Shown in pieces: positions 13,482 through 52,768 of a stretch of DNA of 64,000 nucleotides. Made by a program: the position numbers and the translations under genes. The stretch's first letter is position 1. Each line of letters begins with the position of its first letter. The notes under the pieces are model-generated. The model worked only from the letters and a program-made list of their open reading frames with translations, did no database searches and was not told where the DNA came from. The stretch spans positions 6,864 through 70,863 of the IMG/VR virus record IMGVR_UViG_3300045806_000119; one strand, written 5' to 3'. Source of the DNA: a virus.

Positions 13482-16400
13482 TCACGGGAAGTTAGAGTTA
13501 GTCCCCGGGGCCGTGTAGAAGACGACCCCAACAGTACCGCTCTGCTCTGTGCCACCGTTGATGTAATTATCCGAAATGTAGATGTAGTTAGACCCCGTGC
13601 TCGCAGTGCCGACGGCGTAAACAGCGCCTAGCGTGTTTCCCGACACATGGACGCGGTAGTTCTGAGGCCCAGAGAGGTCAACCGCTCGGATACCCGCCGC
13701 AGCAAGGTAGAGGTCAACAACATTGCCGACGATCCGACTAGTGTAAAGATCCATCGCAGCGATGCCCGCCCCAGAGCAGCCGAGGGCGAAGTAAGAGCCG
13801 TTGTAGGAGCAGCCAAACGCCTGGGCAGTGATGATATTTTCACTGATGAGGACATCTGCCATTCGCGGGCTGCCGGAACCAAACCCGCCGTCTCCCGAAG
13901 CCAGGGCGATTGCGACGAAGCACCAGTACGCGTTCGCCGCTACAGGGGTGTTTGTGTTGCAGGCCACGGCGTTTTGCTGGAAGCTGCCGGGAGACGGGGT
14001 ATTGAGTGCCAGCTGTGCGCGCTGGTAGACCTTGTTTCTGGAGATTCGGATCCCAGTCGAAGACACCAGCGCGTACGGCGTGGCGACGGGCGTGTAGTTC
14101 CGAAGAACGATGCCGATGAGCACCGTCGTGTCGGTCAGCACGCCCGTTGCGGCGGGGAAAGTTCCGCCGCTACCGCCGCTACCACCCGCAATAGAACGCC
14201 AGCCTTGGGGGATGCTGGCGGCTGTTGCAAACCCAATGTCGAACGTGTTGTCGGTCACGCTGATGTTCGACACGGGGCCGGTAACGTTCACCCCATCTTG
14301 CAGCAGGCGGGAGAGGTAGAAGCCGTACAGCGACGGGGCCGTCGTCCCGGACCACCCTGTCGTGCTGTCCGTCGACATGTTGTGGTGGTTTTCGCGGTAC
14401 GTGATGTTCTGGAACGACGTGGAGTACGACCCAAGAACCCCGTTTACGGAAAGTCCACTAAAGACGGCGAGGCACGCCCCCCACAGCGTGTAGCCGGCCG
14501 CCACGCCACCGCAGTAGGAAAAGTCGAAGTAGTTGTCCTCGATGAGCGTCCTCGACGTCTTGTCGCGACCCACAGTCATCGAGATGTACGCCGTGGCAAC
14601 GCAGACACCGGAGCCGGAGAAGTAGTGCATCGGGGCGCCGGTGTAGTCACCGTTGAACGGCAACGCTGACGTGACGCTGTTGTTGCCGGTCTTGCCCATC
14701 GCGCCCGTGGCGTTGATGAACTTGTTCTCCGCGATCTGCAGCAGGCTCTTGGTGCCGAGCACATGAATAGAGGGAATGTTCTGACCGAGGTTCGTCGGAG
14801 CGACCGCAGCTCCGTCGAACACGTTCCCCACGAGGCGCACTTTCCCGTCCGCCGTCGTCTTGAGCACGACGTTCGCGGCGTAGGGGGGCTGGGTCGAGCC
14901 AGTCACCGCAGTCGAGGGAATACCTTGGCAGAAGAAGTAGCTGTCCCGAACGTCCCAGAGCACGTTCTTCGTGCTGCCGTACTCGTTCAAGCCCCCGTTG
15001 GGGGCGAGGAAGAGGAGCGCCGCGCCAGGGTTGACGTTCACGGAGCCGCCCAGCATCGGCGGGCTCACCATCGTGTTGTTGTACGAGTACGGGTTCAAGA
15101 ACCGACAATTCTTGATAATGATGTTATCGGCCTGGACGTAGACAGGGCCGAAGAAGGTGCAGTCCTCCAAGATGACCGTGTCGCCAACGAACGCGGCCAG
15201 ATAGTTGGACTGCGTCCCGGAGCCGAGGTCGTCCATCGCGAAGTTCAGGCTCTTGAGCTTCAGGCAGTTCGCGTAGAACTGAAGCAAGGCGTTCCTGGTC
15301 CCTGACCCACCAAACGCCGGGTTCTGCCCTCGGATGGCGGGCCGCGTCCCGATGGAGTTCCCGGACGTCGTGCCACTGGCGTTCGCGGCGAGCCCGGAAG
15401 CCCCCTCCTCGCCCTCGATAACGATAGACGACCCCGCGTTGCCACCGCTGTCCGCCCCCGCGTTCCAGTCTCCCCACACCTTCGTTCCGCCGAGCATCTG
15501 GTAGGTACCAGAGCGGAGAAAAAGCCGAATATTGCGGGGCTGTCCGCTGCCCTGGATGGCCGGGGCCGCGTAGCCCGGCACAGCCACCGACCAGTTGAGC
15601 GCGCGCTCCAGCGCATCAGCGCCTGTAATCGTGTTGCTCCCTGGAGCGTACTTGTTTCCGTTCGCCGCGAGCACGGCGCGGTACGGCATCGGCGCCTCGC
15701 CTGGCGGGGCCATGCCGGGGTAGTTCACAACGGACGCACCGGCCCCGCGGGTGACGGTACCGTCGAACCACACGAGGTCCTGCCCGATACGCACGACAAG
15801 ACAGAAACTGGCCGGGTCTGCCTGGAAGTTCGTCGTGGGCACCACAGCGAGCTTCTGCCCGAGGATGGCTTGCGTGGGAGAGAGGGTAAAAGCGTTAGTG
15901 GAAAAGTCGAAGACGAAAGGGAGGTCGCTCTTCCCGAGGTACTGGTTGTTGTGCAGCGTCGGGCCGCTCGCCAGCCAGCCAAGCCCGGAACCATCCGGGA
16001 TAGACCACCCCCAGGCGCCAACCGCGGGGAGGGGAGGAGTCGCCCCTCCGTTCGCGACGTACTGGCTGTTCAACGCGTAGACGTCGGGCGAGGACGCTCC
16101 GGTTACCCCGTTCCCGCCAGTAGAGCGAACGATCATCCCACCAGCGCTTGGACCGCTCGCGCTGTAGCTTCCGATCTGCAGGTAGCCCGTGTTCACGTCC
16201 CAGGACACCATCCCGTCCGCGTTGCTGCCGTCCGTCTGGCTGGAGCGGAACGTCTTCAGGAACCACTGCTTCGTCATCCGTTCGACGGGCATCAGCTCGA
16301 CAAGATTCTGGAGCTGGAGCGTGGTCATGATGTTGTAGCCGCTCGTGACCAGCCCGCCCGTCGACATGAGCCCGGTGCCGCCAGAGCACCCGGTAAGCTG

Positions 16401-17198
16401 CGTCCCGCCGAACAGCCCCGTGTACGTGACAGCTTGCGGCCCCGCAGCGGTCGTCACGTACGCCGTACCGGCCCCGGGGAGGCCCGCCGTGGTGGCCACG
16501 TTGATGACCGACTGCGGAAGAGAAAGGCCATTAGAAAGGGCCGCTATGGTGGTAGACACCTCGGCCGGCAGGACGTAGCGGAAGAGGTGGACACGCGCCG
16601 TGTTCCCCAACCACGGCCGAGCCGGAGCAGAGGCAGAGAGCACGGGGATGAGAGCTTCCGCAGCCTCGAAGCTGGTGGTGCTGGACACTTGGTGAAACGT
16701 TGGCGTCCACACCTCCCGTACAGTCGTCTGCCCGTTCAGGGGGGTGGAGATCGTCGGGTCCTGCGTCGCGTTCACTTCCGTCAACACGAAATCGACGTAG
16801 ACGACGCCGTAAACCACACTAGCGGTGGGGTTCGAGAAGGTCAGCGAGCCACCAGCGACAGACGTGAGGTCGAGGTCCGCGGCGAGGTAGTAGCGGACGC
16901 CGTCCACGTACAGGTACCCAGCCGTGACGTACACGCTCGTCGTTCCGTTCGCGTACGGTCGCCAGTCGGTGCCCATGGCACAACCAAAGCGAGTGTAGGG
17001 GCCGCCGGTGTCCGTTGCTCGGAACTGGCTCATCGACGCATGGGCCGCCTCGGAGATGTCGGCGAAGGCAATCTCTTGCGCCTCGTTCAACTCGTTGTCG
17101 ATAGCCGGCTGGCCGAGCTGAAACTCAACGCGCTTCCTGTTGGCTGAGTCGGTGAACGTGTCACGGGTGATGCTAGCGAATAGACCGAGGAATCGCAT
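13482..17198 (-). CDS. Tail fibre/tailspike with DUF6519-like N-terminus and right-handed beta-helix
   Basis: RVEFQLGQPAIDNELNE and YVTAGYLYVDG N-terminal motifs; IxxNxF beta-helix repeats; starts with the MRFLGLF leader. Confidence 0.75.
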   Translation of the reverse strand: MRFLGLFASITRDTFTDSANRKRVEFQLGQPAIDNELNEAQEIAFADISEAAHASMSQFRATDTGGPYTRFGCAMGTDWRPYANGTTSVYVTAGYLYVDGVRYYLAADLDLTSVAGGSLTFSNPTASVVYGVVYVDFVLTEVNATQDPTISTPLNGQTTVREVWTPTFHQVSSTTSFEAAEALIPVLSASAPARPWLGNTARVHLFRYVLPAEVSTTIAALSNGLSLPQSVINVATTAGLPGAGTAYVTTAAGPQAVTYTGLFGGTQLTGCSGGTGLMSTGGLVTSGYNIMTTLQLQNLVELMPVERMTKQWFLKTFRSSQTDGSNADGMVSWDVNTGYLQIGSYSASGPSAGGMIVRSTGGNGVTGASSPDVYALNSQYVANGGATPPLPAVGAWGWSIPDGSGLGWLASGPTLHNNQYLGKSDLPFVFDFSTNAFTLSPTQAILGQKLAVVPTTNFQADPASFCLVVRIGQDLVWFDGTVTRGAGASVVNYPGMAPPGEAPMPYRAVLAANGNKYAPGSNTITGADALERALNWSVAVPGYAAPAIQGSGQPRNIRLFLRSGTYQMLGGTKVWGDWNAGADSGGNAGSSIVIEGEEGASGLAANASGTTSGNSIGTRPAIRGQNPAFGGSGTRNALLQFYANCLKLKSLNFAMDDLGSGTQSNYLAAFVGDTVILEDCTFFGPVYVQADNIIIKNCRFLNPYSYNNTMVSPPMLGGSVNVNPGAALLFLAPNGGLNEYGSTKNVLWDVRDSYFFCQGIPSTAVTGSTQPPYAANVVLKTTADGKVRLVGNVFDGAAVAPTNLGQNIPSIHVLGTKSLLQIAENKFINATGAMGKTGNNSVTSALPFNGDYTGAPMHYFSGSGVCVATAYISMTVGRDKTSRTLIEDNYFDFSYCGGVAAGYTLWGACLAVFSGLSVNGVLGSYSTSFQNITYRENHHNMSTDSTTGWSGTTAPSLYGFYLSRLLQDGVNVTGPVSNISVTDNTFDIGFATAASIPQGWRSIAGGSGGSGGTFPAATGVLTDTTVLIGIVLRNYTPVATPYALVSSTGIRISRNKVYQRAQLALNTPSPGSFQQNAVACNTNTPVAANAYWCFVAIALASGDGGFGSGSPRMADVLISENIITAQAFGCSYNGSYFALGCSGAGIAAMDLYTSRIVGNVVDLYLAAAGIRAVDLSGPQNYRVHVSGNTLGAVYAVGTASTGSNYIYISDNYINGGTEQSGTVGVVFYTAPGTNSNFP

Positions 17199-17208
17199 GG
17201 GTTTTCCT

Positions 17209-19476: not shown

Positions 19477-19494
19477 GGCTCAGCCCTCTTACGA

Positions 19495-20021: not shown

Positions 20022-20043
20022 GGTGTCTCCTCAGACGCAAGAT

Positions 20044-20090
20044 AGCACTCAGCCGCGACTGCCTTCCGTGGACGGTCGCGGCTGAGTGCT
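20044..20090. other. 16-bp perfect inverted repeat (hairpin)
   Basis: AGCACTCAGCCGCGAC...GTCGCGGCTGAGTGCT; no clear U-tract. Confidence 0.6.
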
Positions 20091-20095
20091 CGCAG

Positions 20096-20989
20096 TCACT
20101 TCACCTGCTCTAGTGCCTCCACGACAGCCGCCGTCGCCGCGGTGGGGGTGGCCAGGAGGAGCGGGTGAAGCTCCCAGCACGCCACTACCCACGCGGTGGA
20201 CGCCCAGCACTCGCCGTTCTCGTCCCACGTCTCGCCCCAGCTGTTCTGGATCAGCCAGTCGTACGTACCGTCCGCGTTGGTTCGGTGGCCGACGATGAGC
20301 AGCGCGTGACCTCCTCCGCTCGTGTCGTTCGCCGGGTCGGGCTGGGCGATCATCCCGTTGCCGAGGTTCTCGAACGCCGAGCCCACCTGCGTGCCGAGGT
20401 AGATCGACGAGCCGAGCGCGAGGGTTGCGATCAGCTTCTTCTCGAACCCGGGCACGGCCGGGTCGATGCGCAGCTGCAGCAGCTGGAACTTGTGCTCCAG
20501 CGCCGCCTTCGTCTCCTCGAAGGTAGGGGGCGTGGTCGCGTTGGCCGTCGAAATGTCACTATGGCGACCCTCGACGTCGCCCTCGAAGGGGGCCAGCCCC
20601 TGCGTGATGGCCACGATGATGTTGTCCGACAGCTGACGACCGTCATCTGAGAGGTCGCCCTGCCGCTGACCCGTGAGGCCGTACAGGACGTGCATCGAGC
20701 CGAAAAACCCGATTAGAATCTCGACGCCCTTGACGAGCGCGTGCGCTGTGCAGCTCGACGTAGGACCCTGGTCCGTCTTCGGGTCCTTCGTGTTGTTCGT
20801 TGCCGCCGGCAGGTTACCCTGCGCGATTCGGTCCGCGATGGGGTCCTGCGCGGCTAGGCTCGCCACCATCCCAACAGCGTAGGCCGCTCTCGCGCGGCGA
20901 ACGCCTGGGCGGGGGCGAAGAGCCACGGCATGCGCCGGGCTCTGCACGGTGACCCCGTTGATCCTGTGGTGCGGATTGTGATGGCTCAT
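20096..20989 (-). CDS. Papain-like (C1 family) cysteine peptidase
   Basis: DQGPTSSCTAHA (Gln, Cys), GGHALLIVG (His), IQNSWGETW (Asn). Confidence 0.9.
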   Translation of the reverse strand: MSHHNPHHRINGVTVQSPAHAVALRPRPGVRRARAAYAVGMVASLAAQDPIADRIAQGNLPAATNNTKDPKTDQGPTSSCTAHALVKGVEILIGFFGSMHVLYGLTGQRQGDLSDDGRQLSDNIIVAITQGLAPFEGDVEGRHSDISTANATTPPTFEETKAALEHKFQLLQLRIDPAVPGFEKKLIATLALGSSIYLGTQVGSAFENLGNGMIAQPDPANDTSGGGHALLIVGHRTNADGTYDWLIQNSWGETWDENGECWASTAWVVACWELHPLLLATPTAATAAVVEALEQVK

Positions 20990-39136: not shown

Positions 39137-39570
39137 TAGAGTCCTACTCCCTTGATGACGCGCTGCCAGAACTTCTCTGCCTGCGTCTGAAGCACCCATC
39201 GCACGAGCGGCCGGATGTGCGGACGAGCAGGTACGTTCCCCCACCCGTATTCGAGCAGCTCTCCTAGGTCCGCGTTGGCCATGTTCGTGTTCGTGCCCTT
39301 CGCTTCGATGGAGAGCGTGTTGTCGTCAGACACCTCGGAATCGTAACTATTGATGTACGTCCCCGTGTCGACCAGCGGCGGCTTTCCGTCCGGGTGCCGC
39401 TTCGGGGCGAGGCCAAGCGCCCCGCTCTTCACCTTCTTCTGGAGCCAGAGCACGGCTTCGCCGCCGAGGACAGCCAGCTCCCGCCTCACGACCGGGTCAA
39501 CGGCCTTCGCCGCTAGGCGCAGCTTCAGCTCGCTCTCAGAGAGCCCGGTCATGTGAACACGAATGGCCAT
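39136..39570 (-). CDS. HK97 gp10-like neck / tail completion protein
   Basis: PLVDTGTYINS, LEYG..NVPARPHIRP. Confidence 0.75.
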   Translation of the reverse strand: MAIRVHMTGLSESELKLRLAAKAVDPVVRRELAVLGGEAVLWLQKKVKSGALGLAPKRHPDGKPPLVDTGTYINSYDSEVSDDNTLSIEAKGTNTNMANADLGELLEYGWGNVPARPHIRPLVRWVLQTQAEKFWQRVIKGVGL

Positions 39571-39626
39571 TAGACTAGTGACGGCTTCGTGCACTTGGCC
39601 CAGTCGAAGCGCTGTAGAAATTTCAT
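39570..39626 (-). other. 18-codon mini-ORF MKFLQRFDWAKCTKPSLV (leader-bearing peptide or gene remnant)
   Basis: AAGGTG RBS, ATG at 39626, TAATG coupling to the next gene; near-identical to the start of the 47952-48692 gene. Confidence 0.6.
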
Positions 39627-39634: not shown

Positions 39635-41200
39635 TTATGGGAGGGTTGGCGTCCAGCCGTTCTGACAGATATCGACTAGGCCGTTTGTACTCGTCAGCAC
39701 GATGTCCTGCGGGTTGTTTGCGAAGTCCATGTTCACCCACGCCGGGGACGTGAACGTCAGCCGTGTGGAGCTGACGATAGTGAGATTCGACACCGGCTTT
39801 CCGCCAACGGTTACGACGAGCCCCACGGTCGGGAAGTTCGTCCCGTTCACGGTCACCGTCGTCCCCCCCTGGATGGTCCCGCTCGTGGGGCTCACAGCCG
39901 TGCCGGACAGCACCCCCGACAAGCCAGTCCCCGTCCGGGCAAAGCGGGCTCGAAGCCCCTTCGTGGTCACCTTCAGCACGCGCGACGGAACGATCTCGCC
40001 GTTCCAATTCACCACGTACACGCGGTAATAGTAGGTCGAGTTCGGCTCCAGAGCTTCCTGCAGCGCGCTCGCAAAGCTCGACCCGGCCCCGTTCGGCAGG
40101 ACGACGCCATCGATGAAGGTGTTGTTAGTGATGTTCGACCCCGCCAGCTCCGCAGCGGTCCAGAAGAAGAAGCCGTCGAAGATGGGAGAAACGCGACTAG
40201 CGGTGGCCCCCAGCACCTGCTTCGAGGTAGACATGCGGCTGAATTGCGTGTTGAGGGGCAACGCGGGGCCGCTCGGCGAGCCGATGATCGCGGACGGGTT
40301 GTTCTGACTCGTCAGACGGCCCGAGATGCTCCGGTCCACCTTCGGCTGCGTGTCCCGCCACACCTCCCAGTACGAGAAGCTCGGCTCGCGGTTCTGGCTC
40401 CAACGCAGCCGCACCAGGACGTCCTCCACATCGTCGTCGGCGGGGTCCATGAGGTCCGGGGGCTGGGGAGGCAGCGCGGCCCTGTACGGGTCCGTGTACC
40501 CCGCCCGAAGGCTCCTCCGCGACATGACGCCGGAGATGACGTCCCCGGCCCCCATCTTCGACTCGTCCGCCTTCGGCACGGGGACGATGCGCTCCTGACG
40601 GCGCATGTCCTTCGAGTATTGGTCCTCCATGTCGCTGGCGAGGCGCACCAACGTGCTCGCATCCGTGTCGAGCCCTCGGCGCTTCGACGCGTCCGAGGCC
40701 AGCGTGCGGAACACCTGCGCCGCCGCCTTCATGATGACGTACGGGTACTCGGGCTTGGGGACGGTCCCGATGGTGGTGTAATTCGGATTATGCAACGAGA
40801 TGGCTTCGAGAAGCAGCTCGTTCAACTCCTCGTCCGCGAACATCCGGTGCTTGAGCGTGTAGCTCCTGCCGTTCGACACGTCCGGGATGCCGTCGACCTG
40901 CATGTCGATAGACGGGTGCCCCGACATAACCCCCGGGTCCGCCGTGATGGCGTAGCCAGTCAGGTTGTCGAGCGCGCTCATCAGCTTCCCGACCGTGTTG
41001 TATCGGGAGTCGCTCAGGTCGTAGCGCACGGGGACCACATACTGTCCCCCTTCGATGGTGACAGTGAAAACGCCGTTAGCGATTTCGAGGTACGCGTTCT
41101 TGCAGTTCGCCGTGACCGTGACGGAGAAGGCAGCAACGGAAGAGCGCTCGTCGGACACACGAGCGCGCAACTTCGAGACGAGGTCGTTCCGTGCTGCCAT
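39635..41200 (-). CDS. Head-tail adaptor-like protein with FnIII and IPT/TIG domains
   Basis: LRARVSD...FADEELNELL adaptor pattern; LEPNSTYYYRV FnIII; VSPTSGTIQGGTTVTVNGTNF TIG. Confidence 0.65.
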   Translation of the reverse strand: MAARNDLVSKLRARVSDERSSVAAFSVTVTANCKNAYLEIANGVFTVTIEGGQYVVPVRYDLSDSRYNTVGKLMSALDNLTGYAITADPGVMSGHPSIDMQVDGIPDVSNGRSYTLKHRMFADEELNELLLEAISLHNPNYTTIGTVPKPEYPYVIMKAAAQVFRTLASDASKRRGLDTDASTLVRLASDMEDQYSKDMRRQERIVPVPKADESKMGAGDVISGVMSRRSLRAGYTDPYRAALPPQPPDLMDPADDDVEDVLVRLRWSQNREPSFSYWEVWRDTQPKVDRSISGRLTSQNNPSAIIGSPSGPALPLNTQFSRMSTSKQVLGATASRVSPIFDGFFFWTAAELAGSNITNNTFIDGVVLPNGAGSSFASALQEALEPNSTYYYRVYVVNWNGEIVPSRVLKVTTKGLRARFARTGTGLSGVLSGTAVSPTSGTIQGGTTVTVNGTNFPTVGLVVTVGGKPVSNLTIVSSTRLTFTSPAWVNMDFANNPQDIVLTSTNGLVDICQNGWTPTLP

Positions 41201-41665: not shown

Positions 41666-42040
41666 TTACCCGTTGATGGCCGCAATCGGGGCGTAGGGGA
41701 TCGAGAGGATCGCCCCGGCCGGGATGGCGCCAGACGCCGTGAGGATAGTGACACCCGTCGACACGTTGTGGCTCGTGACCGCAAGCTGCGTAGCCTGCGT
41801 CGAGTAGGTGCTGCCTGCCAGCGTGTAGACAGGCAGCGGCGAGTCGACAGGGAGGAGCCCCGCCGCCTGACCCGGCGGCACAGTGACAGCGAGGGTGTCG
41901 GCCGCCGCCATCGTGGTACCCACGGTGACCTGAACCCACTGGAGATTCGCATCATTGACGCCGCGTCCCGTCGCGACGCCCTGGGCGGTGTAGGCGGTGT
42001 ACGCCTGGAGAAACTTCTTGATGACCTTCTTGAGTCGCAT
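41666..42040 (-). CDS. Putative capsid decoration protein
   Basis: Directly after the major capsid gene; beta-rich; leader MRLKKVIKKFLQAY. Confidence 0.55.
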   Translation of the reverse strand: MRLKKVIKKFLQAYTAYTAQGVATGRGVNDANLQWVQVTVGTTMAAADTLAVTVPPGQAAGLLPVDSPLPVYTLAGSTYSTQATQLAVTSHNVSTGVTILTASGAIPAGAILSIPYAPIAAING

Positions 42041-42074: not shown

Positions 42075-43058
42075 TCAGGCAGTCTCGATCACGAGACTGT
42101 TCTTCGTCTCCAGGAGGCCCTGGCCCCAGATGGCGTACCAGGCGAGCGCGTGCTCGCGGCCGAAGTCCTGGATGCCGTTGTCGCGCAGCTCGACGGGGAG
42201 CGCGATGGCGTGGCCGTACGCGTACTCCCCGAAGACGACCGCCTGGTAGATGGTCGTGAGGAGGCCGCCCGTGGCGAGCGGGTCGAGCAGCGGGTCGTAA
42301 CCCGGGTCGGCGTAGTCGCCGCTCGGGTCGAGGACGCTGTTCTTGCCGTTCGCCATCATCGACGTGCTGACGAAGCGGAAGTCGTTGAACCGACCGACCT
42401 CGCCGTAGAAGATCGGCATGGCGCCCGCGTAGTGCGCGGCGTTGATCCACCCCGCCGACTTGCGCAGCCCGGTGAGCTGGTGCGGGTGAGCGAAGGCGAC
42501 GTAGAAGTCGTTCCCCCACTTCGGCGCGTTGTTCGTCTCCATCGCCTCGTTCGCGTTCAGCACCTCATTGGTGGTGAACACGTCGCCAGTGGCGAGCGCG
42601 CCGCGCGACGTCTTGTCGTTCGCGTACACCTTCGTCGTGCCGTAGCGCACGACGTCGCGCAGCTCGGTGTCGAGCACGATCGCCATGTCGCGACCGAGCA
42701 TCATCGCCGCCGCCGCGAGGTTGTCGTAGAACGACGTCTGGAGCAGGCGCTCCGTAAGGCCGATCGCGTTGCCCTGCTCGGCGACCGTAATATTGATGGT
42801 GGACATCGCCATCGACTTGGTCTGGAGCCTGACGCCTTCCGTCAGCTGCCCGCCTCGCTTGATGTTGCCGAACTTCGGCATGACGATGTTCGCGCCAGGT
42901 GCTGTCCCCAGCTCCTCCTTGCGCGTGGCGAACTGGTCGAACCGGAGGTTCGGCTGCGCCTGGAAGTAGATTTCCGCGCTGTAGACGTCGCGGGTGGCCG
43001 TGAGCAGGGCAGAGAACCCCGGTCCGGTCGTCTGTGCAGTGGTCAGCACTGAGGGCAT
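42075..43058 (-). CDS. Major capsid protein (N4 gp56-like, HK97 fold)
   Basis: LRFDQFA, LTEG, EQGNAI, YVAFAHPHQ..LR, GEVGRFNDFRFV, DFGREH.LAWY. Confidence 0.9.
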   Translation of the reverse strand: MPSVLTTAQTTGPGFSALLTATRDVYSAEIYFQAQPNLRFDQFATRKEELGTAPGANIVMPKFGNIKRGGQLTEGVRLQTKSMAMSTINITVAEQGNAIGLTERLLQTSFYDNLAAAAMMLGRDMAIVLDTELRDVVRYGTTKVYANDKTSRGALATGDVFTTNEVLNANEAMETNNAPKWGNDFYVAFAHPHQLTGLRKSAGWINAAHYAGAMPIFYGEVGRFNDFRFVSTSMMANGKNSVLDPSGDYADPGYDPLLDPLATGGLLTTIYQAVVFGEYAYGHAIALPVELRDNGIQDFGREHALAWYAIWGQGLLETKNSLVIETA

Positions 43059-43119: not shown

Positions 43120-44190
43120 TCATTGTCCCCCTGCCCTACGACCGGACAGGGATGCTTCTGCTGCTGCCCGAGCGGCGGCCATGTCGGCTTGGCTCGGCTG
43201 TCCCGTGGCCTGGTACTGCCCCGGGGCTACCTCCTGCTGAAAGTGGGCTGGCTGTGGAGCCCGACCAGGAAATCCTGCTGATGGAACGCCGCGTGTTGGT
43301 GCCTGCGCAGGAGCACCCTGCGGCGACATCTGCGGAGCCGAGACGCCAGCGAACGGATTCGCCGAGGCCACAGCCGGCCCACGCGACTGCGACGGGGGGA
43401 CGAGGCCGGGTAGGCTCTGCCCGGACAGGGAAAACTGCCCCGGCGGTCCCTGCATCCCCGAACGAAGCGCGGCGTGCAGGGCCTGGCGGTTCTTCGCGTA
43501 GTCACCGTTCCGAATCGCGTCGGAGCTGGTGAAGTACGCGAGCTGCTCCTGCGAAATCGCGTTAGGACCCGTGTCAGCGACGCCGGGAGCCGATACGAAG
43601 CCGGGAAGGCTCGGCGCCGGGGGCGCAACCTGCGTCGAAGTCACGGTCCCCTGCGGGACAGCCGGAGGAGGCGCTTCGACCGGAGCTGCAGCAGCAGGAA
43701 CGGCGGGGGGCGGCGGAGGCGGGGGGTTCTTCTCCGCGAACTGCCGATGCAGCTGCTCGTACTCCGCCGTGGCAATGAGAATGCTCTGGTCGATCTCCGC
43801 CGTCGTGTTACCCCGCACGATTGCGTCAATGAGGTTCTTGCCGTTGGCCCGAACCGCGTTGATCGCCTGCGCCTGGTACGTGTCAAGGCGCATGCGCTCC
43901 AGCTGCAGGGTCAGGCGCGCGTTATCCGCCTGCACCTGCGTGATGGCCGCCGCCTGCTCGGGGGAGAGCGCGGGAGCGACAACGGTGATGGGGGCCGCCG
44001 GCGCCGGTGCGGACGGCGCGGGAGCCTGCTGTGCAGCCAGCACCCTCGCCAGCTCGTACACCATCCCCGCGGGGACGGTGGACGAGGGGGAGTAGGGGGT
44101 CGGCTGTGCTGCGGGTGGAGAAGGCGTCTGGCCCTCCGCACCTTCGGGATCGAATCTCTTGAGGAAGCGAAACATGTTAGTCGAGTTCAT
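43120..44190 (-). CDS. Capsid scaffolding protein
   Basis: Upstream of the capsid gene; Pro/Ala-rich with coiled coil; leader MFRFLKRF. Confidence 0.7.
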   Translation of the reverse strand: MNSTNMFRFLKRFDPEGAEGQTPSPPAAQPTPYSPSSTVPAGMVYELARVLAAQQAPAPSAPAPAAPITVVAPALSPEQAAAITQVQADNARLTLQLERMRLDTYQAQAINAVRANGKNLIDAIVRGNTTAEIDQSILIATAEYEQLHRQFAEKNPPPPPPPAVPAAAAPVEAPPPAVPQGTVTSTQVAPPAPSLPGFVSAPGVADTGPNAISQEQLAYFTSSDAIRNGDYAKNRQALHAALRSGMQGPPGQFSLSGQSLPGLVPPSQSRGPAVASANPFAGVSAPQMSPQGAPAQAPTRGVPSAGFPGRAPQPAHFQQEVAPGQYQATGQPSQADMAAARAAAEASLSGRRAGGQ

Positions 44191-44553: not shown

Positions 44554-44967
44554 TCACTGCGAAATCCAGAACGCGACGAGCCCTGCCGGCGTGTTAGCGG
44601 AGGCCGTCACCTGCACGTAGTACGTGAGGTACGCCCCGCCGATTTCCTGGACAACGGCATTGCCCTCGGTGACGACGAGTCCCGCCTTCACGCACACCCA
44701 CGTAGGGCTGCTCGGGTTCGACCAGTCGAGAATCCAGATGTTGACGGTCGCCGTCGATGTCCCGCCCGCCGTGTTCTTCATGGCGAACATGAGCGCGCCC
44801 TTGATCGGGAAGTACCAGTCCGGCGAAGTGGCTGGCGCCCCCTCGACCATCCCCGCCGTGCCGCCTGCCGGCAGCACTCCCGGCGGGAACGCCGGCAGGA
44901 GGGTGTTCGGGTTGGCGTCGACTGAGAAGTTCGTGCGCTGGAAGACGCTGCTGCGCTGCATACCCAT
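44554..44967 (-). CDS. Putative virion protein
   Basis: TAATG-coupled to the portal gene; beta-rich. Confidence 0.55.
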   Translation of the reverse strand: MGMQRSSVFQRTNFSVDANPNTLLPAFPPGVLPAGGTAGMVEGAPATSPDWYFPIKGALMFAMKNTAGGTSTATVNIWILDWSNPSSPTWVCVKAGLVVTEGNAVVQEIGGAYLTYYVQVTASANTPAGLVAFWISQ

Positions 44968-47222
44968 TAGACCTTGACTCCTGGCTTGGCGTTGGGCGGC
45001 GTAGCGGGCTTGCTTGCCGCGTTGTCTCCGGGCACGGCCTTGTTCCCTCGACCAGGTCCCGGCCCTGGGGGCGGCGGCGCTCCGTTGTTGCTCCCGCCCG
45101 GCCCGGAGCCGGTGGCCCCCGGCGTCTGCGCAACCTGCGCCGCGAGCGGGTCCTCGATGGGCTTCCCGGTGAGCGCGGCGAGGAAGGGAATGTCATTAGC
45201 AATTTCCTCGTCCAGCTTCGGACCGTCCATCTCCTCATCGAGATGATCCCGAATCCAACGCCGGCTCGACCAGCCATTCGTCTGGTACACCGCGTACAGA
45301 TTCGCGTCCTCCTGCTTGTTCCGAGGGAGGGGGGTGCGCAGGGAGCAAGTCGTGCTGTACGGACTCAGGTATACCGGACGGCTGCAGCCGGACGGGACGA
45401 TCTTCAGCTCGCCAAGGTCCTCCGTCACGAACTGCTTCGCGTTGGCGTCCCACGTCTTCACGATGACGCGCACCGTCTCCGGCTCCTCCGGGACGTCCAT
45501 ATCGTGATTAGCTAGCTGCTCAGGCTTCACCTCGGGTGCCTTGTCCAGCTCCTTCGGCAGCGGACCCGCTCTGGGCTGTGGCGGCGGGGGCAGGACATCT
45601 TTCGGCGCAGGCTTGCTGGCTTCCGCTACGGCGTGCTCGTGCTCGTCTGCCGCCTGCTGCTCACCCGCGTGGTGGGCCTGCACGGCACGAGCACGGTCGT
45701 GGTCATCCTGCGCCTTCTCCTCCAGGTCCACCTTCGGTGCCGGGTCCCAGTAGCTCGCCGACTCCTTGAGGAACGTCTCCTTCACGTCCCCGTACTTCAT
45801 CTCCTTCGTCTCGACGCCGAACGAGAACTTCCGACGCCACTTCACGAGGACGTCGTCGGGGTCCATGAAGTCGAGCGTCTGCGGGTCGATGAGGTAGCAC
45901 TTCTTCTTTTTCCTCCCCTTCCGCAGCGGGATGACGTTCCCCTTCGGCGAGTCTTCAACCTCGATGATTCGCCCGCCGCAATTCTTGCAGATGTCGACGG
46001 GGTAGCTCGTCCCGTTCACCAGCTGGTCGAAGCGGAGAATAAAATAGTTGATTTTCTCCACCGCAAGCTGGAACGACGCCTTCTTCCGCTCGATTGCCTC
46101 GACGAGCGGCTGAAACTGCACCTGCAGTGCGGCGGCGCTCGTGTTGCTCACGGGCTGTATCCGCCCCAGCGACCCCTCCGGGATGCTCGACACGTCCATC
46201 ATCATCTGACGGATCGTCTCGATGTACTTCGTCGAAGCCGGCAGGTCGGAGCCCAGCGTCAGGTTGAACACCTTCGCGTCCGCGGGCAGCCCGGCCCACA
46301 TGCTCTTCGGCCCGCGCTCCAGGTTCTTCGCCTTCGCACCCGTGATGATGGTCACGGGCGCCGCGTGGTAGTTCACAATGTCACTAACATCGGTCATCTT
46401 CTCGTTCAGCTCGCGCTGAAGGTCGATGACTCCGTCGAGGTCCGACATCCCGTAATACTCATTAGGGAACGATTCGTTCACCCAGTGAACGAGTGGAATC
46501 TCCCCAAGGTCGTTCGGTCGACGCGTCGGCGCCCCGTCCTCTTCCCACCCCTCCACGATCTCCGTGGCCGTGATGTTCTCGATGTAGCGACGGCGACGCG
46601 ACACGCCGAGCGACCCCTGCACCATCGGCGTGCGGCGGCCGTCCTCTGGCCCGACAGGGCCGAAGTCCGGCACCTCCGTGATGATGCGAACAGAGAGCAG
46701 CTCCTCTGAGTTCAGCGGGTTCCAGTACGGGAACACCTGGTGCGAGCCCAGCAGACGCAGGCGGATCTTGCCCTGCGTGTACGGGTTCACCGCCATCATC
46801 GCGTCGCTCGGCGGCTGGTACGTCACGAGGATGAACCCGTCCCCCGTCACGCCGCTCGTCACGGCCATGTTGTTCAGCAGGACAGGCTCGGCGTTGTACT
46901 TCCACACCTCGTCGATCTTCGGCTTCGTGATCTCCTGCAACGCCTCGGGGACGGAGTTCACCATCCCCTTGCCCACCAGCCAGCTCGCCTTCTTGTGGAC
47001 GATGGTCTTGCAGTAGTTCGCGGTGACGAGCGGCTCGCCGTCCTCCCGCGTGAAGCTCCAGTGCAGCCCCTGGAAGAAACGCCACGACTCCTCGTACCGC
47101 TTCAGGCGCATCGCGTCCTGCGGGTTGAGGGCGATGCTGTTCAGCGTGTACGGAGCGTTCCTCCGCTCGTACGGAACGGCCGACCCTCCATTCCCCTGCA
47201 GTGCGAGTAGCTGGACGGGCAC
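44967..47222 (-). CDS. Portal protein (SPP1 gp6-like) with large insertion
   Basis: NYCKTIV, GVTGDG, LGEIPLVHW.N, G.SDL..VIDLQ, SNTSAAAL, PLPRN. Confidence 0.88.
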   Translation of the reverse strand: MPVQLLALQGNGGSAVPYERRNAPYTLNSIALNPQDAMRLKRYEESWRFFQGLHWSFTREDGEPLVTANYCKTIVHKKASWLVGKGMVNSVPEALQEITKPKIDEVWKYNAEPVLLNNMAVTSGVTGDGFILVTYQPPSDAMMAVNPYTQGKIRLRLLGSHQVFPYWNPLNSEELLSVRIITEVPDFGPVGPEDGRRTPMVQGSLGVSRRRRYIENITATEIVEGWEEDGAPTRRPNDLGEIPLVHWVNESFPNEYYGMSDLDGVIDLQRELNEKMTDVSDIVNYHAAPVTIITGAKAKNLERGPKSMWAGLPADAKVFNLTLGSDLPASTKYIETIRQMMMDVSSIPEGSLGRIQPVSNTSAAALQVQFQPLVEAIERKKASFQLAVEKINYFILRFDQLVNGTSYPVDICKNCGGRIIEVEDSPKGNVIPLRKGRKKKKCYLIDPQTLDFMDPDDVLVKWRRKFSFGVETKEMKYGDVKETFLKESASYWDPAPKVDLEEKAQDDHDRARAVQAHHAGEQQAADEHEHAVAEASKPAPKDVLPPPPQPRAGPLPKELDKAPEVKPEQLANHDMDVPEEPETVRVIVKTWDANAKQFVTEDLGELKIVPSGCSRPVYLSPYSTTCSLRTPLPRNKQEDANLYAVYQTNGWSSRRWIRDHLDEEMDGPKLDEEIANDIPFLAALTGKPIEDPLAAQVAQTPGATGSGPGGSNNGAPPPPGPGPGRGNKAVPGDNAASKPATPPNAKPGVKV

Positions 47223-47225
47223 GGG

Positions 47226-47949: not shown

Positions 47950-47951
47950 TA

Positions 47952-48692
47952 CTAGCGCTTCGGCGTGTTGCCGCGCGGGTAACGACCCGCAGCGCCCTGC
48001 GGCTTGTAGGTGGCCGCAGAGGGGGTGCCGTTGTCCTTGGGGCCGCCGCTGCCCCTCTTCGACGAGGACCCGATGCCAACCCTCTGCGCTGTGTCGTCCA
48101 TCGCCTTCTTGCTCGGCTTCGCGCTGCCGTGCGTTCCATCGCCGCCAGCGAGGTACTCATGAGCGAAGTTCCGCGTCGCGCCCTTGAAGTGCTCGCTCTC
48201 GCCCAGCTGCTTCATCGCCCGCTCGGTCATCTCCTTCTTGTCGACCGGCTTGCCGATGCTCTTGATGATTTTCTCCTGCTCCGTGGAGTGATACTCCGAC
48301 TTGCCCTCGTGTATGCGTGCGGACCCCTGGTGGGAAAACACGCTCTTCCGATGCGCCTCGGCCAGCGCGGCGTGGTTGGCGGCGTCGACGGTGTTCCCCG
48401 CAGTCGTAGCCATGCGAGATGCAGTGGCGTGCGCCACCTGCGCGTCCCTGTGCGCCTGCTGCGCGTTCCTGTGCGCCCAGGCACCGCCTACCCGATTCGC
48501 GTTTCCCGTGCTGTCGTGCGCCTTCTGGCTGGTGTACGACGCGTGGCTCGAAGCTTCGAGGTACTTCTTGTACCCCTCCGTCGCCGACTGGCGAGACGGG
48601 TGGCCGAAGGCGGACTTCGCCCCCTCCCCGGTCTTCCCGGTCTTGCGCGCGGCGTCGTACTTCTCCCAGTTGAATCGCTGTAGGAATTTCAT
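47952..48692 (-). CDS. His/Ala/Lys-rich protein, candidate internal head protein
   Basis: Start MKFLQRF at 48692 after GGAG; repeated AHxxA helices. Confidence 0.6.
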   Translation of the reverse strand: MKFLQRFNWEKYDAARKTGKTGEGAKSAFGHPSRQSATEGYKKYLEASSHASYTSQKAHDSTGNANRVGGAWAHRNAQQAHRDAQVAHATASRMATTAGNTVDAANHAALAEAHRKSVFSHQGSARIHEGKSEYHSTEQEKIIKSIGKPVDKKEMTERAMKQLGESEHFKGATRNFAHEYLAGGDGTHGSAKPSKKAMDDTAQRVGIGSSSKRGSGGPKDNGTPSAATYKPQGAAGRYPRGNTPKR

Positions 48693-48709
48693 TGATTGGC
48701 TCCGATGGT

Positions 48710-49201
48710 TCAGGGTCGAACGAGGCACCACCGGATAGTCGACGTTTCCGTCCCCGATGTGCTGGTAATGGTGAACTGCGTGTTGCTCACGCGGGTACAC
48801 GAAATGACGCCAGTCGTGCCACCCGCCGCCTGCACGGTCGCGTACAGCGTCGTGCCGACAGGGACGGGGAGCCCGCCATCCGTAGGCGCCGGCACGGTGA
48901 CCGTGGTGCTACCGGCAACGAGCGTCGCCGTTCCCTGCGCTCCGTCGATGTTCTGCGCCCCGCTCGTCGCGACAGAAAGCATCTGAGGGGTGACCTGCTG
49001 GTCAACCGCCGAGCCCCCTCCGCTGTTGAGGTTCATCAGGTTCGCGTACACAGACTGCCCGTTGCTGAAGCTATGGATGAGCAGCTTGAAGTCCTGATCC
49101 TTGATGACCACCCCGCTGAGCCCGAGGCTCGTCAGCACCGACTGAATCAGGCTGACGATGCTCGGGTGCGTCTTCGCGTTCGTGACTACCGTGGTGGTCA
49201 T
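48710..49201 (-). CDS. Putative virion protein
   Basis: Thr-rich beta C-terminus (GTATLVAG...FTITSTSG). Confidence 0.55.
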   Translation of the reverse strand: MTTTVVTNAKTHPSIVSLIQSVLTSLGLSGVVIKDQDFKLLIHSFSNGQSVYANLMNLNSGGGSAVDQQVTPQMLSVATSGAQNIDGAQGTATLVAGSTTVTVPAPTDGGLPVPVGTTLYATVQAAGGTTGVISCTRVSNTQFTITSTSGTETSTIRWCLVRP

Positions 49202-49740: not shown

Positions 49741-49758
49741 GGCTGCCTCCGAACTCGA

Positions 49759-50259
49759 TTAGGAGTTGGTGATGTAGGGACGGATGGTGGGCTCCAGCAC
49801 GAACAGGAACGACACCAGCGTCGAGCCGCTCACGAGAGTGGTGACGACGCGGAAGCGGTCGCCAGGGTTGAACGACTTCGAGAGGGGCGCGATGAGCCCC
49901 ATCCCCGCCAGCGACTGCTGGTCGTTCGTCGGCTGGTTCGCGTTGCTGATGACGTACGGCGCCGTGAGCACCGACGCGAAGCCGCCTCCGGCCACGGGCG
50001 CCTTCTGCAGGTCGATGGTGTACGTCTCCGCCGCCGCCGCCGCACCCGTGATGATGAAGTAGGCGTCGCCGATGAGCCCAGCGAAGTCCACCATCCCCAG
50101 CTCGGTCCCGGCAGTGGTCGCGATGGCCGGCTGCTCGAACCGCATCTGGTTCATCTTGCCGATGTGCTTGCCGATCGCCTTGTCGTTGAGCGGCTGATCG
50201 AAGTCCTGGATGACCGAGAGCTTCGAGAACGTCTGGAGAAAGCGCTTCATGTTCCGCAT
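49759..50259 (-). CDS. Putative virion protein (beta-sandwich)
   Basis: Start MRNMKRFLQTF after GAGGA; TIDLQK...GDRFRV. Confidence 0.6.
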   Translation of the reverse strand: MRNMKRFLQTFSKLSVIQDFDQPLNDKAIGKHIGKMNQMRFEQPAIATTAGTELGMVDFAGLIGDAYFIITGAAAAAETYTIDLQKAPVAGGGFASVLTAPYVISNANQPTNDQQSLAGMGLIAPLSKSFNPGDRFRVVTTLVSGSTLVSFLFVLEPTIRPYITNS

Positions 50260-50266
50260 GTTTTCC

Positions 50267-51925
50267 TCATCGCCGGTACCTGTCGGCTCTGCTGGGGTTG
50301 AAGTCCTGCCTACCCCCTCTTGTAGCATAAAAGGGGTTGTCAACTGCTTCCGCGCCTGCATCAACGCGTGGCTGCGCCGCCGCCCAGCAGCACAGGGCCG
50401 CTGAGTCGCAGTAGTCGTCATGATCCCCCTCTGGCGCGAAGCACCGAATGAACACGCCGACGCGGTCCTTGAGCAGCTCCTCGTGCTCATGGACGAACTG
50501 CTGAAACTCCGTGCTCTTGCGCATCTCCTCGCCCGCGGCGTAGCGCATCCGGCCGGCTTCCAGCTCCTGAATGTAATACTTGTACGCCTTGTCGTTGCCA
50601 ACGTGCGACATCATGAACGGGACCACCTGCATCCCCGGCACGAGCCCTTGCAGTTGCTCGGTCAACGGGTCGCCGATGCCTGTAGCGTCGCACACGACCG
50701 TGTCGACGGAGTACCGCCCCAGCGCCTCCACGACGGCAGCGAGGATGTCGTGCCATTTTCGACCAGGTATCTCGTACCATGCCACAATTCGTTTAGTGTG
50801 GTAGGTCGGCGTGTCTTCGCCCGGCCGGATGACGGCGCGCATGTCAATGATGGGCACATCGTCCACCTCGGCGATGGTCAGGATGGTGCAGTCGCGCTTC
50901 CGCCCGTAGTCGAGCCCCGCGACGTAGCGTCGTGAATACCCGCTAGTGACGGCCTCCAGCAGGTAGTCTCCCGCCTCCGCGAACGCGTCGCGGTCAATGG
51001 CACCCGCGTTGGCCTCTTGCCACAGCAGGCGGAAGTTCTGGCGGAACTCCTCGTTCTCGATGTTCCCGCCGAGGCGCTTCAACTCCCCGCTCACCCACTT
51101 CTCGTAGGCCAGATGCTTCGGGTCCTTCGTCTCCTCGTAGCGCCTCCGCTTGTCGACGATGACGTGCGTGTACGGGAACTCGAAGTGGTTCCGCTTCCCC
51201 GTCAGCTTCTCCGTCTCGACGTTGTAGATAATCGACTTCCGAAAGTTCCCACGCAGCGCGTTGGCCGTGCCAATCTTTATCATTGACCCATTTGTAGCGG
51301 CCAGCATCGGCGCGATCTCTTTCGACAGCTTCACCTCTCCTACGAGCTGCGCCTCGTCGATGATGATGAGGTGAAAAGTCAGCCCTTCCACCGTGCTGCT
51401 CTCGCTCGCCGTCTGCGCAGTGACGAAGCTCCCGTTCGTCCAGGACACAAGGTCGCCTCGACTGGCAGCCACGGCCACGTTGATGTCCGGGTCGGAGTAA
51501 ATCTCTAACGAAGACTCACGCTGAGCCCTCTGCCGGATGCGTCCGTAGATGATGCCCGACTGCTGCTGCTTCGGCGCGAAGATGCCGATCCAGAACCCCT
51601 CCCTGTAGCGGCTCAGCCGAGGGTCGTCCGGGAACGCCTTTGCGAGTGCGGGCAAGATGATGCAGAGAGACGACGCCAGCGACGCGACGGCCTCACTTTT
51701 CCCGCTCTGCCGGCACCATAGCGCCGTGAGCACAGCTCCCTCATCTGCGAGGATGGCCTCCACCGAGCGGTGCATGAACACCAGCTGGTAGTTGTAGAGC
51801 TGGATGCCGGCGGGCTCGTTGTAGACCCGTACAAATTGCATTATCACGTCTGCCAGCCGCTTGTTGTCGAGCGGGCAGACGGACTTGAGCTTCTCTACAG
51901 GGACATTTCCACTAATTGGTTCCAT
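50267..51925 (-). CDS. terL: Terminase large subunit
   Basis: LYNYQ, WCRQSGKS Walker A, IIIDEAQ Walker B, IGT, GLDYGRKRD, DATGIG, HDDYCDS. Confidence 0.93.
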   Translation of the reverse strand: MEPISGNVPVEKLKSVCPLDNKRLADVIMQFVRVYNEPAGIQLYNYQLVFMHRSVEAILADEGAVLTALWCRQSGKSEAVASLASSLCIILPALAKAFPDDPRLSRYREGFWIGIFAPKQQQSGIIYGRIRQRAQRESSLEIYSDPDINVAVAASRGDLVSWTNGSFVTAQTASESSTVEGLTFHLIIIDEAQLVGEVKLSKEIAPMLAATNGSMIKIGTANALRGNFRKSIIYNVETEKLTGKRNHFEFPYTHVIVDKRRRYEETKDPKHLAYEKWVSGELKRLGGNIENEEFRQNFRLLWQEANAGAIDRDAFAEAGDYLLEAVTSGYSRRYVAGLDYGRKRDCTILTIAEVDDVPIIDMRAVIRPGEDTPTYHTKRIVAWYEIPGRKWHDILAAVVEALGRYSVDTVVCDATGIGDPLTEQLQGLVPGMQVVPFMMSHVGNDKAYKYYIQELEAGRMRYAAGEEMRKSTEFQQFVHEHEELLKDRVGVFIRCFAPEGDHDDYCDSAALCCWAAAQPRVDAGAEAVDNPFYATRGGRQDFNPSRADRYRR

Positions 51926-52242
51926 TGCTTGGGTTCCTTGAAGCACGTATCGCGGAGGTCGAACTCGAAGTGACCATCATACGCGCACGCAATCAAGTGC
52001 AAGCCCATCAGCACGAACTCCAGCTGCGGCAGCCGGTGGAACGGTACGTCGAGGACCATGTCCCCGCAGCCATCGACATCCCGGTCCTTGTACGCTTCGA
52101 CCGGCACGAGGTACGCGTTGAGCGTCATCATCAGCGCGCTCGTCCCAGCGCACACAAGCGGACCCTCATCCGTCTGCTCTGCGTGGCCGAGGACGCTGAG
52201 TCGTACGCCCTCCTTCGTGTCCTCTGTCGTGACCTGGATCAT
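51895..52242 (-). CDS. prp: Prp-family (DUF464/YsxB) ribosomal-processing cysteine protease
   Basis: 115 aa; MIQVT...LSVLGHA(His20)...LVC(Cys31)AGTSAL...N.L...GL..IA..Y matches the Prp pattern. Confidence 0.85.
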   Translation of the reverse strand: MIQVTTEDTKEGVRLSVLGHAEQTDEGPLVCAGTSALMMTLNAYLVPVEAYKDRDVDGCGDMVLDVPFHRLPQLEFVLMGLHLIACAYDGHFEFDLRDTCFKEPKQWNQLVEMSL

Positions 52243-52307
52243 CTAAACTCCGCTAGAGACTAGGCTTGTAGGAGTGCTGGGTGACAAGCCCGAAGAAACC
52301 CTGCTGC

Positions 52308-52553
52308 TCAGCGGACCATGGACCCGATGCGTGCCCCGATGCGCCTGGCGCCAGCGACGACGCGAGCGATGATGCCGCGGTTCGGGTTGTTACCCCCGCG
52401 GCCAGTGCCAGCCGCGGTGCGAACGCCGAGGTTGCCGCCGCGGGGTCCGCGGGGAGCCGTGGTCGTGATGCGCTGGGGGCCGCGCTGCCCCCGGCCGGGC
52501 TGGTTGCCGTTGGCGGGGGAAGATCCACCACCGAACGTCTTGAGGAACTTCAT
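52308..52553 (-). CDS. Arg/Gly-rich mini-protein 2 (MKFLKTFGGGSS...)
   Basis: TGATG coupling to mini-protein 1; 81 aa, no acidic residues. Confidence 0.65.
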   Translation of the reverse strand: MKFLKTFGGGSSPANGNQPGRGQRGPQRITTTAPRGPRGGNLGVRTAAGTGRGGNNPNRGIIARVVAGARRIGARIGSMVR

Positions 52554-52768
52554 CAGCGCACCCGTGCCCCGGCGCGCGGAGGCGGCTGGTTGCCGCGCCG
52601 ATACGGGGGGGCGCCGCGCTTCCCGCGCTCGGCGTTCGTCTCCGCGCCGAAGCTCTGCCCGGGACGGTTGCCGGGGCGGAGCGGGCGACCCGACGCCGAG
52701 AATCGGGACGGGGGCTGGTTGCCGTTGGCGGGGGAAGATCCACCACCGAACGTCTTGAGGAACTTCAT
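52497..52768. repeat. 57-bp perfect direct repeat (52497-52553 and 52712-52768)
   Basis: Identical copies cover exactly the first 19 codons of both mini-proteins. Confidence 0.95.
52553..52768 (-). CDS. Arg/Gly/Pro-rich mini-protein 1 (MKFLKTFGGGSS...)
   Basis: AAGGAG RBS; 71 aa. Confidence 0.7.
   Translation of the reverse strand: MKFLKTFGGGSSPANGNQPPSRFSASGRPLRPGNRPGQSFGAETNAERGKRGAPPYRRGNQPPPRAGARVR

Follow-up and report, generated by a model that had tools for sequence, protein, structure and literature searches.

A 64-kb stretch of the IMG/VR virus record IMGVR_UViG_3300045806_000119 (hereafter the window; the record itself is 70,863 bp long and 58% complete by CheckV) carries a gene for a Prp-family cysteine protease and nine reading frames that begin with a similar short N-terminal extension, here called the leader. 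In this report, we describe both elements and their distribution among related phage contigs, and we weigh the explanations that may account for them. The G+C content of the window is 60-67% (the contig is summarised as 63%) and nearly every gene lies on the minus strand. Lengths below are in amino acids (aa), and the protease gene and the nine leader-bearing frames are arranged as follows:

52553-52768, minus strand: small basic Gly/Arg/Pro-rich protein 1, 71 aa, 7-residue leader (52748-52768), with a strong AAGGAG ribosome site
52308-52553, minus strand: small basic Gly/Arg-rich protein 2, 81 aa, 7-residue leader (52533-52553), its start overlapping the stop of protein 1 (TGATG)
51895-52242, minus strand: Prp-family cysteine protease, 115 aa, His20/Cys31, assigned by profile, catalytic pair and AlphaFold2 (AF2) fold
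49759-50259, minus strand: 166-aa protein, function unassigned, 11-residue leader (50227-50259)
47952-48692, minus strand: 246-aa His/Ala-rich protein, 7-residue leader (48672-48692)
43120-44190, minus strand: scaffold-like protein, 356 aa, named by position only, 13-residue leader (44152-44190), or 8 residues counted from a second Met
41666-42040, minus strand: 124-aa beta-sandwich protein just after the capsid gene (a "decoration" label reflects position only), 14-residue leader (41999-42040)
39570-39626, minus strand: mini open reading frame (mini-ORF) of 18 codons that begins with a 7-residue leader, its stop overlapping the ATG of the next, Neck1-type gene (TGATG)
35259-35810, minus strand: tail tube, 183 aa, 16-residue leader (35763-35810), matching PF06841 T4_gp19 (E 2.7e-28) from residue 27
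13482-17198, minus strand: fibre-like protein, 1238 aa, labelled by position only, 7-residue leader (17178-17198), with phrog_877 (function unassigned) as sole match

The protease ORF adjoins the terminase large subunit gene terL on its upstream side, with a slight overlap, and stands at the head of the late structural block. A sequence-only reading of the window had taken it for a Prp/DUF464-like gene, and the profile and structure searches run here bear this out. Searched alone, the ORF matches PF04327 with 25.4 bits (E 1.7e-5) over residues 1-45 only, and phrog_4478, annotated as "peptidase", over residues 1-92 (E 7e-9). An exhaustive search of 1.8 billion representatives returned only 16 proteins at E <= 0.001; one of them, P0008, is a 2130-aa SdrD-B repeat protein whose match is spurious, and it was dropped from the subfamily alignment and profile (A1), which hold 15 sequences. 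All 15 match PF04327 (E <= 0.01), and M1, I2, G19, H20, C31, A32, S35, G60 and Y88 are invariant in 15/15. Within the ORF, GH occupies residues 19-20 and VCAG residues 30-33, and G19/H20 and C31/A32/S35 align with the GHA and VCAGAS motifs of Staphylococcus aureus Prp, in which the His/Cys catalytic pair is His22/Cys34 (PMC9405229). The subfamily profile matches S. aureus Prp (4peo/7kld) over its full length (E 3.7e-8, positions 1-97) with GH and CA.S in register, and also matches the solved Prp-family structures 7jvs, 1s12, 2idl and 2g0i. The AF2 model has a mean predicted local distance difference test score (pLDDT) of 87.9 and a predicted template modelling score (pTM) of 0.80, and in a Foldseek comparison against the PDB the best 11 chains listed (ranks 1-13) are all of the Prp family, with probabilities of 0.99-1.00 and template modelling (TM) scores of 0.50-0.70. 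By profile, catalytic pair and fold, the 115-aa ORF belongs to a divergent Prp subfamily of phages, and its two catalytic residues are preserved.

A word-indexed homologue search with the protein returned the query itself only, a locus search of viral and metagenome contigs with a six-sequence Prp alignment turned up no relative, and cluster look-ups gave metagenome singletons or "YsxB (DUF464)" labels only. By context the gene is not a ribosomal Prp, since no L27 (PF01016) match was found on the contig; in place of an L21-Prp-L27 operon with a long L27 substrate, its neighbours are two small basic proteins and terL. We also considered whether such small basic proteins mimic L27 and rejected the idea: the eight that were scanned gave no meaningful Pfam match at E <= 1, and the contig itself lacks L27.

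The leader follows the pattern [KR]-[FY]-L-x-x-[FY], which ends 7-16 residues from the start and is followed by a small or polar residue. All nine motif-bearing N-termini named by the sequence-only reading were found in place, with starts at 52768, 52553, 50259, 48692, 44190, 42040, 39626, 35810 and 17198, and each start is accompanied either by a purine run of Shine-Dalgarno type or by a TGATG overlap of stop and start codons. The frame that starts at 44190 has a second Met, at 44175, ahead of its motif, and the starts of the tube, 48692 and 50259 genes were set at the motif-bearing ATG, 7-17 nucleotides (nt) past the preceding stop, and not at that of the longest ORF. Across the three minus-strand frames FL..[FY] occurs 16 times, and 9 of these occurrences sit 2-11 residues past an in-frame Met at the leader-gene starts. 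Enrichment was calculated on 69 curated genes (19,480 aa), comparing the first 20 residues with the other 18,102 positions: [FY]L..[FY] is matched 11 times in the first 20 residues, in 10 genes, against 0.49 matches expected (Poisson P 5.9e-12), and 8 times elsewhere, so that the proposed enrichment over background N-termini was recovered. Nine of these 10 genes have the basic leader type; the tenth, with its start at 55684, has a hydrophobic, signal-peptide-like N-terminus. It encodes a 186-aa protein (55124-55684, minus strand) outside the structural block, in which the bare pattern occurs twice without the basic residue, and it was counted as non-leader. Genes with the N-terminal motif make up 9/40 within 13482-52768 and 1/29 outside (Fisher P 0.037).

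Positions are numbered here from the putative cut after the last aromatic residue, P1, with P1' following it. Among 26 leaders from 7 contigs, constraint is also evident at positions that the search pattern does not cover: Lys or Arg occupies P6 in 23/26, Thr occupies P2 in 17/26, and P1' is G, N, D, S, T, A or V in 26/26. The site in L27 has been given as MLxx(D/N)LQ(F/L)F'A(S/H)KK (PMC9405229); P5 is Phe or Tyr here versus Asp or Asn there, in line with the earlier suggestion of Phe in place of Asn. The leaders use different synonymous codons (TTC/TTT, CTC/CTA), the distance between ATG and motif is 2-11 codons in the window and up to about 16 codons in relatives, and the upstream DNA of the leader genes has nothing in common beyond the ribosome site; selection on the leader therefore acts on the protein and not on the DNA. 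In the genes that share the motif, the leader is very probably the cutting site of the phage Prp. The observation lies far beyond chance, and the comparative support for the proposed reading is good.

Small protein 1 shares its first 19 residues with small protein 2, and the leader DNA is near-identical in two pairs, namely the first 57 nt of these two small genes, and the mini-ORF and the 5' end of the 48692 gene. Both pairs are recent duplicates, and some leader copies therefore arose by duplication. The tail tube label given to the 35810 gene agrees with its T4_gp19 match. No Pfam or PHROG match was obtained for the scaffold-like protein, nor for the post-capsid protein, which also gave no structural match at E <= 0.001 in the PDB or BFVD; in the AF2 model of the latter (pLDDT 82.9), the fold begins at residue 16 and the first 10 residues average a pLDDT of 54. 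Among the nine leader-bearing frames, the mini-ORF is an 18-codon stand-alone frame and not a structural gene. A second leader-first mini-ORF is present in the related contig L131 (8626-8685, plus strand; 19 codons), with a strong ribosome site and 30 nt before the portal gene. The two mini-ORFs are independent of each other, and the one in the window has a good ribosome site as well. Such frames may be failed insertions of a leader cassette or sources of short free peptides.

The fibre-like protein contains a further copy of the motif at residues 313-317. Here, at residues 308-317 (16248-16277, minus strand), the small-protein leader motif recurs in perfect form after an internal Met, and the corresponding segment of the G002 and G007 homologues is similar but does not match the motif. 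The internal copy could be a second cut site or due to chance.

The leader is absent from other genes of the same block:

50267-51946, minus strand: terminase large subunit, terL, without leader; phrog_2, E 5.3e-23
44967-47222, minus strand: SPP1-type portal, a 751-aa ORF without leader; PF05133 SPP1_portal, E 4e-17
42075-43058, minus strand: HK97-type major capsid protein, without leader; PF13252 and PF25209
39136-39573, minus strand: tail completion/Neck1-like protein, without a leader of its own; phrog_5, E 3.7e-11
35822-38266, minus strand: tail sheath, without leader; PF17482 and PF04984

Together with the tube and a run of baseplate proteins recognised in the window by hidden Markov model (HMM) searches, these HMM-identified terminase, portal, capsid, neck and sheath genes identify the source virus as a contractile-tailed phage. 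The motif is absent from the major capsid protein, the sheath, the portal and the replication genes; its absence from the capsid and replication genes had already been pointed out from the sequence alone. The capsid N-terminus is conserved from residue 1 in relatives both with and without Prp. In addition, no prohead protease of the S78/U35, S49/ClpP-like or T4 gp21-like families was detected by Pfam or PHROG match among the proteins from terL to the capsid gene, a search in which HMMs can miss divergent members; the claim that the head module has no S78/S49-type protease agrees with this result.

Relatives were collected by capsid- and terminase-anchored searches of IMG/VR, which yielded a graded series of contigs. 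A close Prp homologue is present in G000, G001, G002, G006 and L131 (the last added by a terL-anchored scan of viral contigs), and 5/5 carry leader-bearing genes. In G001, G002, G006 and L131 the Prp gene is always just upstream of terL, and directly upstream of it lies a small Gly-rich basic protein with a leader (two genes in G001). Leaders are also present in G007 and L008, contigs that do not cover the Prp region; they were found only in contigs that either carry the phage Prp or do not cover that region. No Prp match was obtained in ten relatives (G003, G004, G005, G008-G010 and G012-G015; 5/10 are 92-100% complete by CheckV), and none of their orthologous genes has a leader, starting instead near the predicted cut, as anticipated for relatives lacking prp. 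The relatives returned by a terL-anchored metagenome scan were all distant (<= 43% identity) and had neither Prp nor leaders. A motif-like N-terminus in G003 was rejected as a leader; it falls within an N-terminal region that, as judged by eye, is apparently also present in a G000 protein of comparable length without leader (start 27650).

Among the contigs with Prp or leaders that reach the gene, this contig included, the scaffold-like protein has the leader in 5/5 contigs (orthologues in G001, G002, G006 and G007; leaderless orthologues are found in G003 and G011), the tube in 5/5 (orthologues in G002, G006, G007 and L008) and the post-capsid protein in 4/5, that of G006 being leaderless. 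The fibre-like and 50259 proteins have it in 1/3 contigs each, in both cases in this contig only; the leader of the 48692 gene is likewise confined to this contig, and no homologue of that gene was found in relatives by tblastn. The core tagged set in relatives, which consists of the small basic protein, the scaffold-like protein, the post-capsid protein and the tube, is smaller than the set found here.

Comparison of orthologues identifies the leader as a modular extension. The leaderless tubes of G003, G004, G005 and G011 begin about 6 residues before a shared E-D-P motif, and in tagged tubes this motif lies 6 residues past the predicted cut. Fibre-like orthologues in G002, G003, G005 and G007 are leaderless and begin at the predicted cut, as does the G005 counterpart of the 50259 protein, whose counterparts in G006 and L131 are leaderless as well. 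For the post-capsid protein, the leader is an N-terminal extension in 4/9 sequences of alignment A5. In all four proteins, the start of the leaderless orthologues coincides with the predicted cut or differs from it by a few residues, and the motif is kept at orthologous genes that share 24-51% protein identity. Since relatives assemble the same proteins without leaders, the leader appears to be an added control layer and not part of the fold.

G011, which is placed among the Prp-less relatives, has a divergent Prp-like gene (E 6e-5; GH and CAAVS) in the same position before terL. The pair formed by this gene and that of an adjacent small basic protein takes up 2430-2660 and 2740-3024 of L112, and only that adjacent protein, 76 aa long and rich in Lys, Gly, Ala and Pro, has an N-terminus ending in Phe before Gly-Gly. 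A comparable small basic protein encoded by G003 (L020, 5709-5933), which lacks Prp, has no N-terminus of this kind. An origin of the system as a pair of Prp and small basic protein would fit this single case.

Taken together, these results point towards a phage-encoded Prp that would remove the shared leaders from several virion proteins, and we consider this the likely explanation. In the proposed mechanism, the phage would supply its own Prp-family cysteine protease from the head of the late structural block. Its candidate substrates would be the nine reading frames that begin with a 7-16-residue extension ending in the motif before a small or polar residue, namely those of the two small basic proteins, two proteins of the terminase-portal interval, the scaffold-like and post-capsid proteins, the tube, the fibre-like protein and the mini-ORF. 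The enzyme would cut after the last aromatic residue, because P4 Leu, P1 Phe and a small P1' are as at known Prp sites, and the released mature proteins would have N-termini matching those of the leaderless orthologues in related phages. Co-folding of two Prp copies with residues 1-32 of small protein 2, without controls, gave a score of 0.17, with the mark at 0.32, a value that speaks in neither direction on binding.

Several points weigh against this explanation. The single-sequence Pfam score of the protease, 25.4 bits, is below the curated cut-off of 27 bits. There are 8 internal motif matches in window proteins, one of them the perfect copy inside the fibre-like protein, so the five-residue pattern must be insufficient alone and the N-terminal context must matter. 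In G011, a Prp-like gene occurs together with scaffold-like, tube and post-capsid proteins that have no leader. On the capsid tree, all contigs that combine Prp with leaders fall into a single clade (support 100/98), and the co-occurrence therefore amounts to about one gain and not five; the independent part is the gene-by-gene gain or loss of leaders inside the clade. The specificity of the family is not uniform, as the protease of phage Cp-1 removes 48 residues and its cut follows a His by count (PMC12445089). Phage 80alpha remains viable when cleavage is abolished (PMC5744158), and any benefit of cutting may accordingly be subtle. Finally, the cutter could be the Prp of a host.

Among the alternatives, the one that survives best is that the leader is a recognition tag that is not cleaved, such as a chaperone handle or a signal for an assembly site or for capsid targeting, with the Prp-like protein doing something else or processing only the adjacent small protein. 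We regard this as unlikely. Two observations speak for it: the N-terminal sequence of the 80alpha scaffold protein is needed for assembly while its cleavage is not, and a common chaperone has been discussed in that system (PMC5744158), and G011 pairs its Prp-like gene with a small basic protein only. On the other hand, the same motif, with P6 Lys/Arg, P2 Thr and a small P1', is common to the small protein next to Prp and the structural proteins, which makes a single reader of the motif the simplest assumption. Moreover, leaderless orthologues function without any tag, and P4 Leu and P1 Phe are common to the proven Prp sites (PMC9405229).

A second alternative is that a Prp of the host cuts the leaders, as happens in 80alpha, and that the gene on the phage is a spare, a specificity variant or a factor in host takeover. 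The nearest capsid relatives in bacterial assemblies are contigs of metagenome-assembled genomes labelled Thermosipho (48%) and Bacillota (46%), and both fall in phyla to which Prp is native (PMC9405229). No close prophage was found when one was sought via the capsid in bacterial genome assemblies, hence no host was identified; among cultured phages no DNA match to the contig and no tblastn match for Prp were obtained, and the nearest cultured capsid relative is Bacillus phage BCD7 (43% identity). The distribution in relatives, with leaders only where the phage Prp is present or its region uncovered, and the use of P5 Phe/Tyr instead of the Asp/Asn of L27, which suggests a matched, separate specificity, make this alternative quite improbable. 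A pattern arising by chance or at the DNA or mRNA level (a start-codon preference, a promoter or ribosome-site cassette, or a gene-calling artefact) is barely credible, in spite of the two leader pairs near-identical in DNA, given a probability of about 6e-12 by chance, the synonymous codon differences and variable distance from the ATG (2-11 codons, to about 16 in relatives), the conservation at orthologues with 24-51% protein identity and the absence of the motif from the capsid and sheath genes, which are expected to be the most highly expressed.

If leaders are indeed removed by the phage Prp, their purpose may be to delay the activity of self-assembling or DNA-binding components of the virion until the late protease has appeared, a guess that we advance tentatively and as one possibility within this explanation. 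It is also tempting to speculate, with somewhat greater doubt, that the leader is a portable licence tag, in which a short cassette of ribosome site plus leader spreads by duplication to further virion genes of a phage lineage with its own Prp, and one late protease serves as master switch for the joint release of head, tube, fibre and DNA-associated proteins. By analogy with the bacterial L27-Prp pair, the original client would be the small basic Gly-rich protein next to Prp; G011 would represent an early state and this contig, with nine tagged frames, the most expanded one, and the mini-ORFs would be failed cassette insertions or sources of free peptides of 11-12 residues.

Some further features of the region were recorded. 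The last ~190 residues of the portal ORF correspond to a separate 214-aa gene in G002 (L003, 206-3468), where two small basic genes lie between the portal proper and the 214-aa gene, and G001 (L002, 4657-7924) has a matching gap of ~1.1 kb between two portal blocks. An intron in the G002 portal gene was considered and rejected, as there is no Rfam match and the gap consists of two ordinary small genes. Between terL and the portal lies a gene for a 163-aa protein with a K1-lyase C-terminal domain (48710-49201, minus strand; PF24146, E 2e-11), after the capsid module one for a 521-aa protein with a TIG/IPT domain (39635-41200, minus strand; PF01833, E 3e-10), and in the tail/lysis region one for a 297-aa protein matching phrog_16701 "peptidase" (20096-20989, minus strand; E 1e-8), which is not related to Prp. 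The genes at 52848-55101 (minus strand), upstream of the small basic proteins, have N-termini that we take by eye to be QueC-like (SGGxDS motif), and Prp-less relatives have what we likewise take by eye to be QueC-like and QueF-like genes directly before terL, which suggests 7-deazaguanine DNA modification.

In Firmicutes, Prp is essential for ribosome maturation, and staphylococcal phages make use of it as a host factor. The host enzyme cleaves the 80alpha capsid and scaffold proteins at F|A, taking off 13-14 residues, and the Prp motif has likewise been noted on the phage 80 capsid protein and the phi13 major tail protein (PMC5744158). The system described here shares with S. aureus Prp (MEROPS C108) and its L27 and 80alpha substrates the protease family, the His/Cys pair and the fold, as well as a single motif (P4 Leu, P1 Phe, small P1') in the short N-terminal extensions of proteins that are not related to each other, and the phi13 tail-protein motif parallels the tube leader (PMC5744158). 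In contrast, the protease gene lies here on the phage, in the late block beside terL and on a contig without L27; P5 Phe/Tyr and P6 Lys/Arg replace the (D/N) preceded by x of the L27-type motif (PMC9405229); the capsid protein is not a candidate substrate; and four to nine genes have the motif, including those of the small basic proteins, the tube and the fibre-like protein.

A phage-encoded Prp homologue has a precedent in Cp-1, whose protease (orf13) belongs with Prp to clan CR, family C108, and processes a virion protein N-terminally (PMC12445089, PMC9405229). That Cp-1 encodes its own homologue, which the sequence-only reading had cited, agrees with the match of orf13 to our subfamily profile (35.4 bits, GH and CA.VS in register). 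Cp-1, whose host is a Firmicute, is a small podovirus of the phi29 type, whereas the phage considered here is contractile-tailed. In addition, the one substrate described for the Cp-1 enzyme is the major head protein, which loses 48 residues, the cut following His48 by count. The capsid protein is untagged here, its N-terminus bearing no motif, and the system is therefore not Cp-1-like in its choice of substrates: leaders of 7-16 residues occur on many proteins, and the major head protein has no such propeptide. An N-terminal extension of FlhB has been proposed on bioinformatic grounds as a bacterial Prp substrate besides L27 (PMC9405229). There too, one Prp would serve several unrelated proteins with a matching N-terminal motif, although the FlhB substrates are cellular and not viral, and an extension quoted from the Thermotoga group ends in a basic-hydrophobic stretch before F'A, much like the leaders described here (PMC9405229).

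In the literature searched, which did not cover subscription journals, we came across no account of a Prp that is encoded by a phage and accompanied by several tagged virion proteins. If the proposed explanation is true, the phage would supply both the enzyme and a matched, distinct recognition motif, and this motif would be present on proteins of every virion sub-assembly and not of the head alone. The gene-by-gene gain of tags within the clade would then provide a natural series on the N-terminal licensing of self-assembly, and a 115-aa protease with a short, apparently portable site of 6-7 residues would be a candidate orthogonal tool for tag removal. Similar leader motifs could be sought in phage genomes with PF04327 genes.

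In T4, the phage protease gp21 trims short N-terminal pieces from several head proteins, including small basic internal proteins. The gp21 enzyme is of an unrelated family and acts only inside the prohead, unlike the situation proposed here, in which the tube and the fibre-like protein are tagged too. Set beside these systems, the use of Prp in this phage appears to be wider than described, with an enzyme of its own and a putative tag on up to nine particle-building reading frames.

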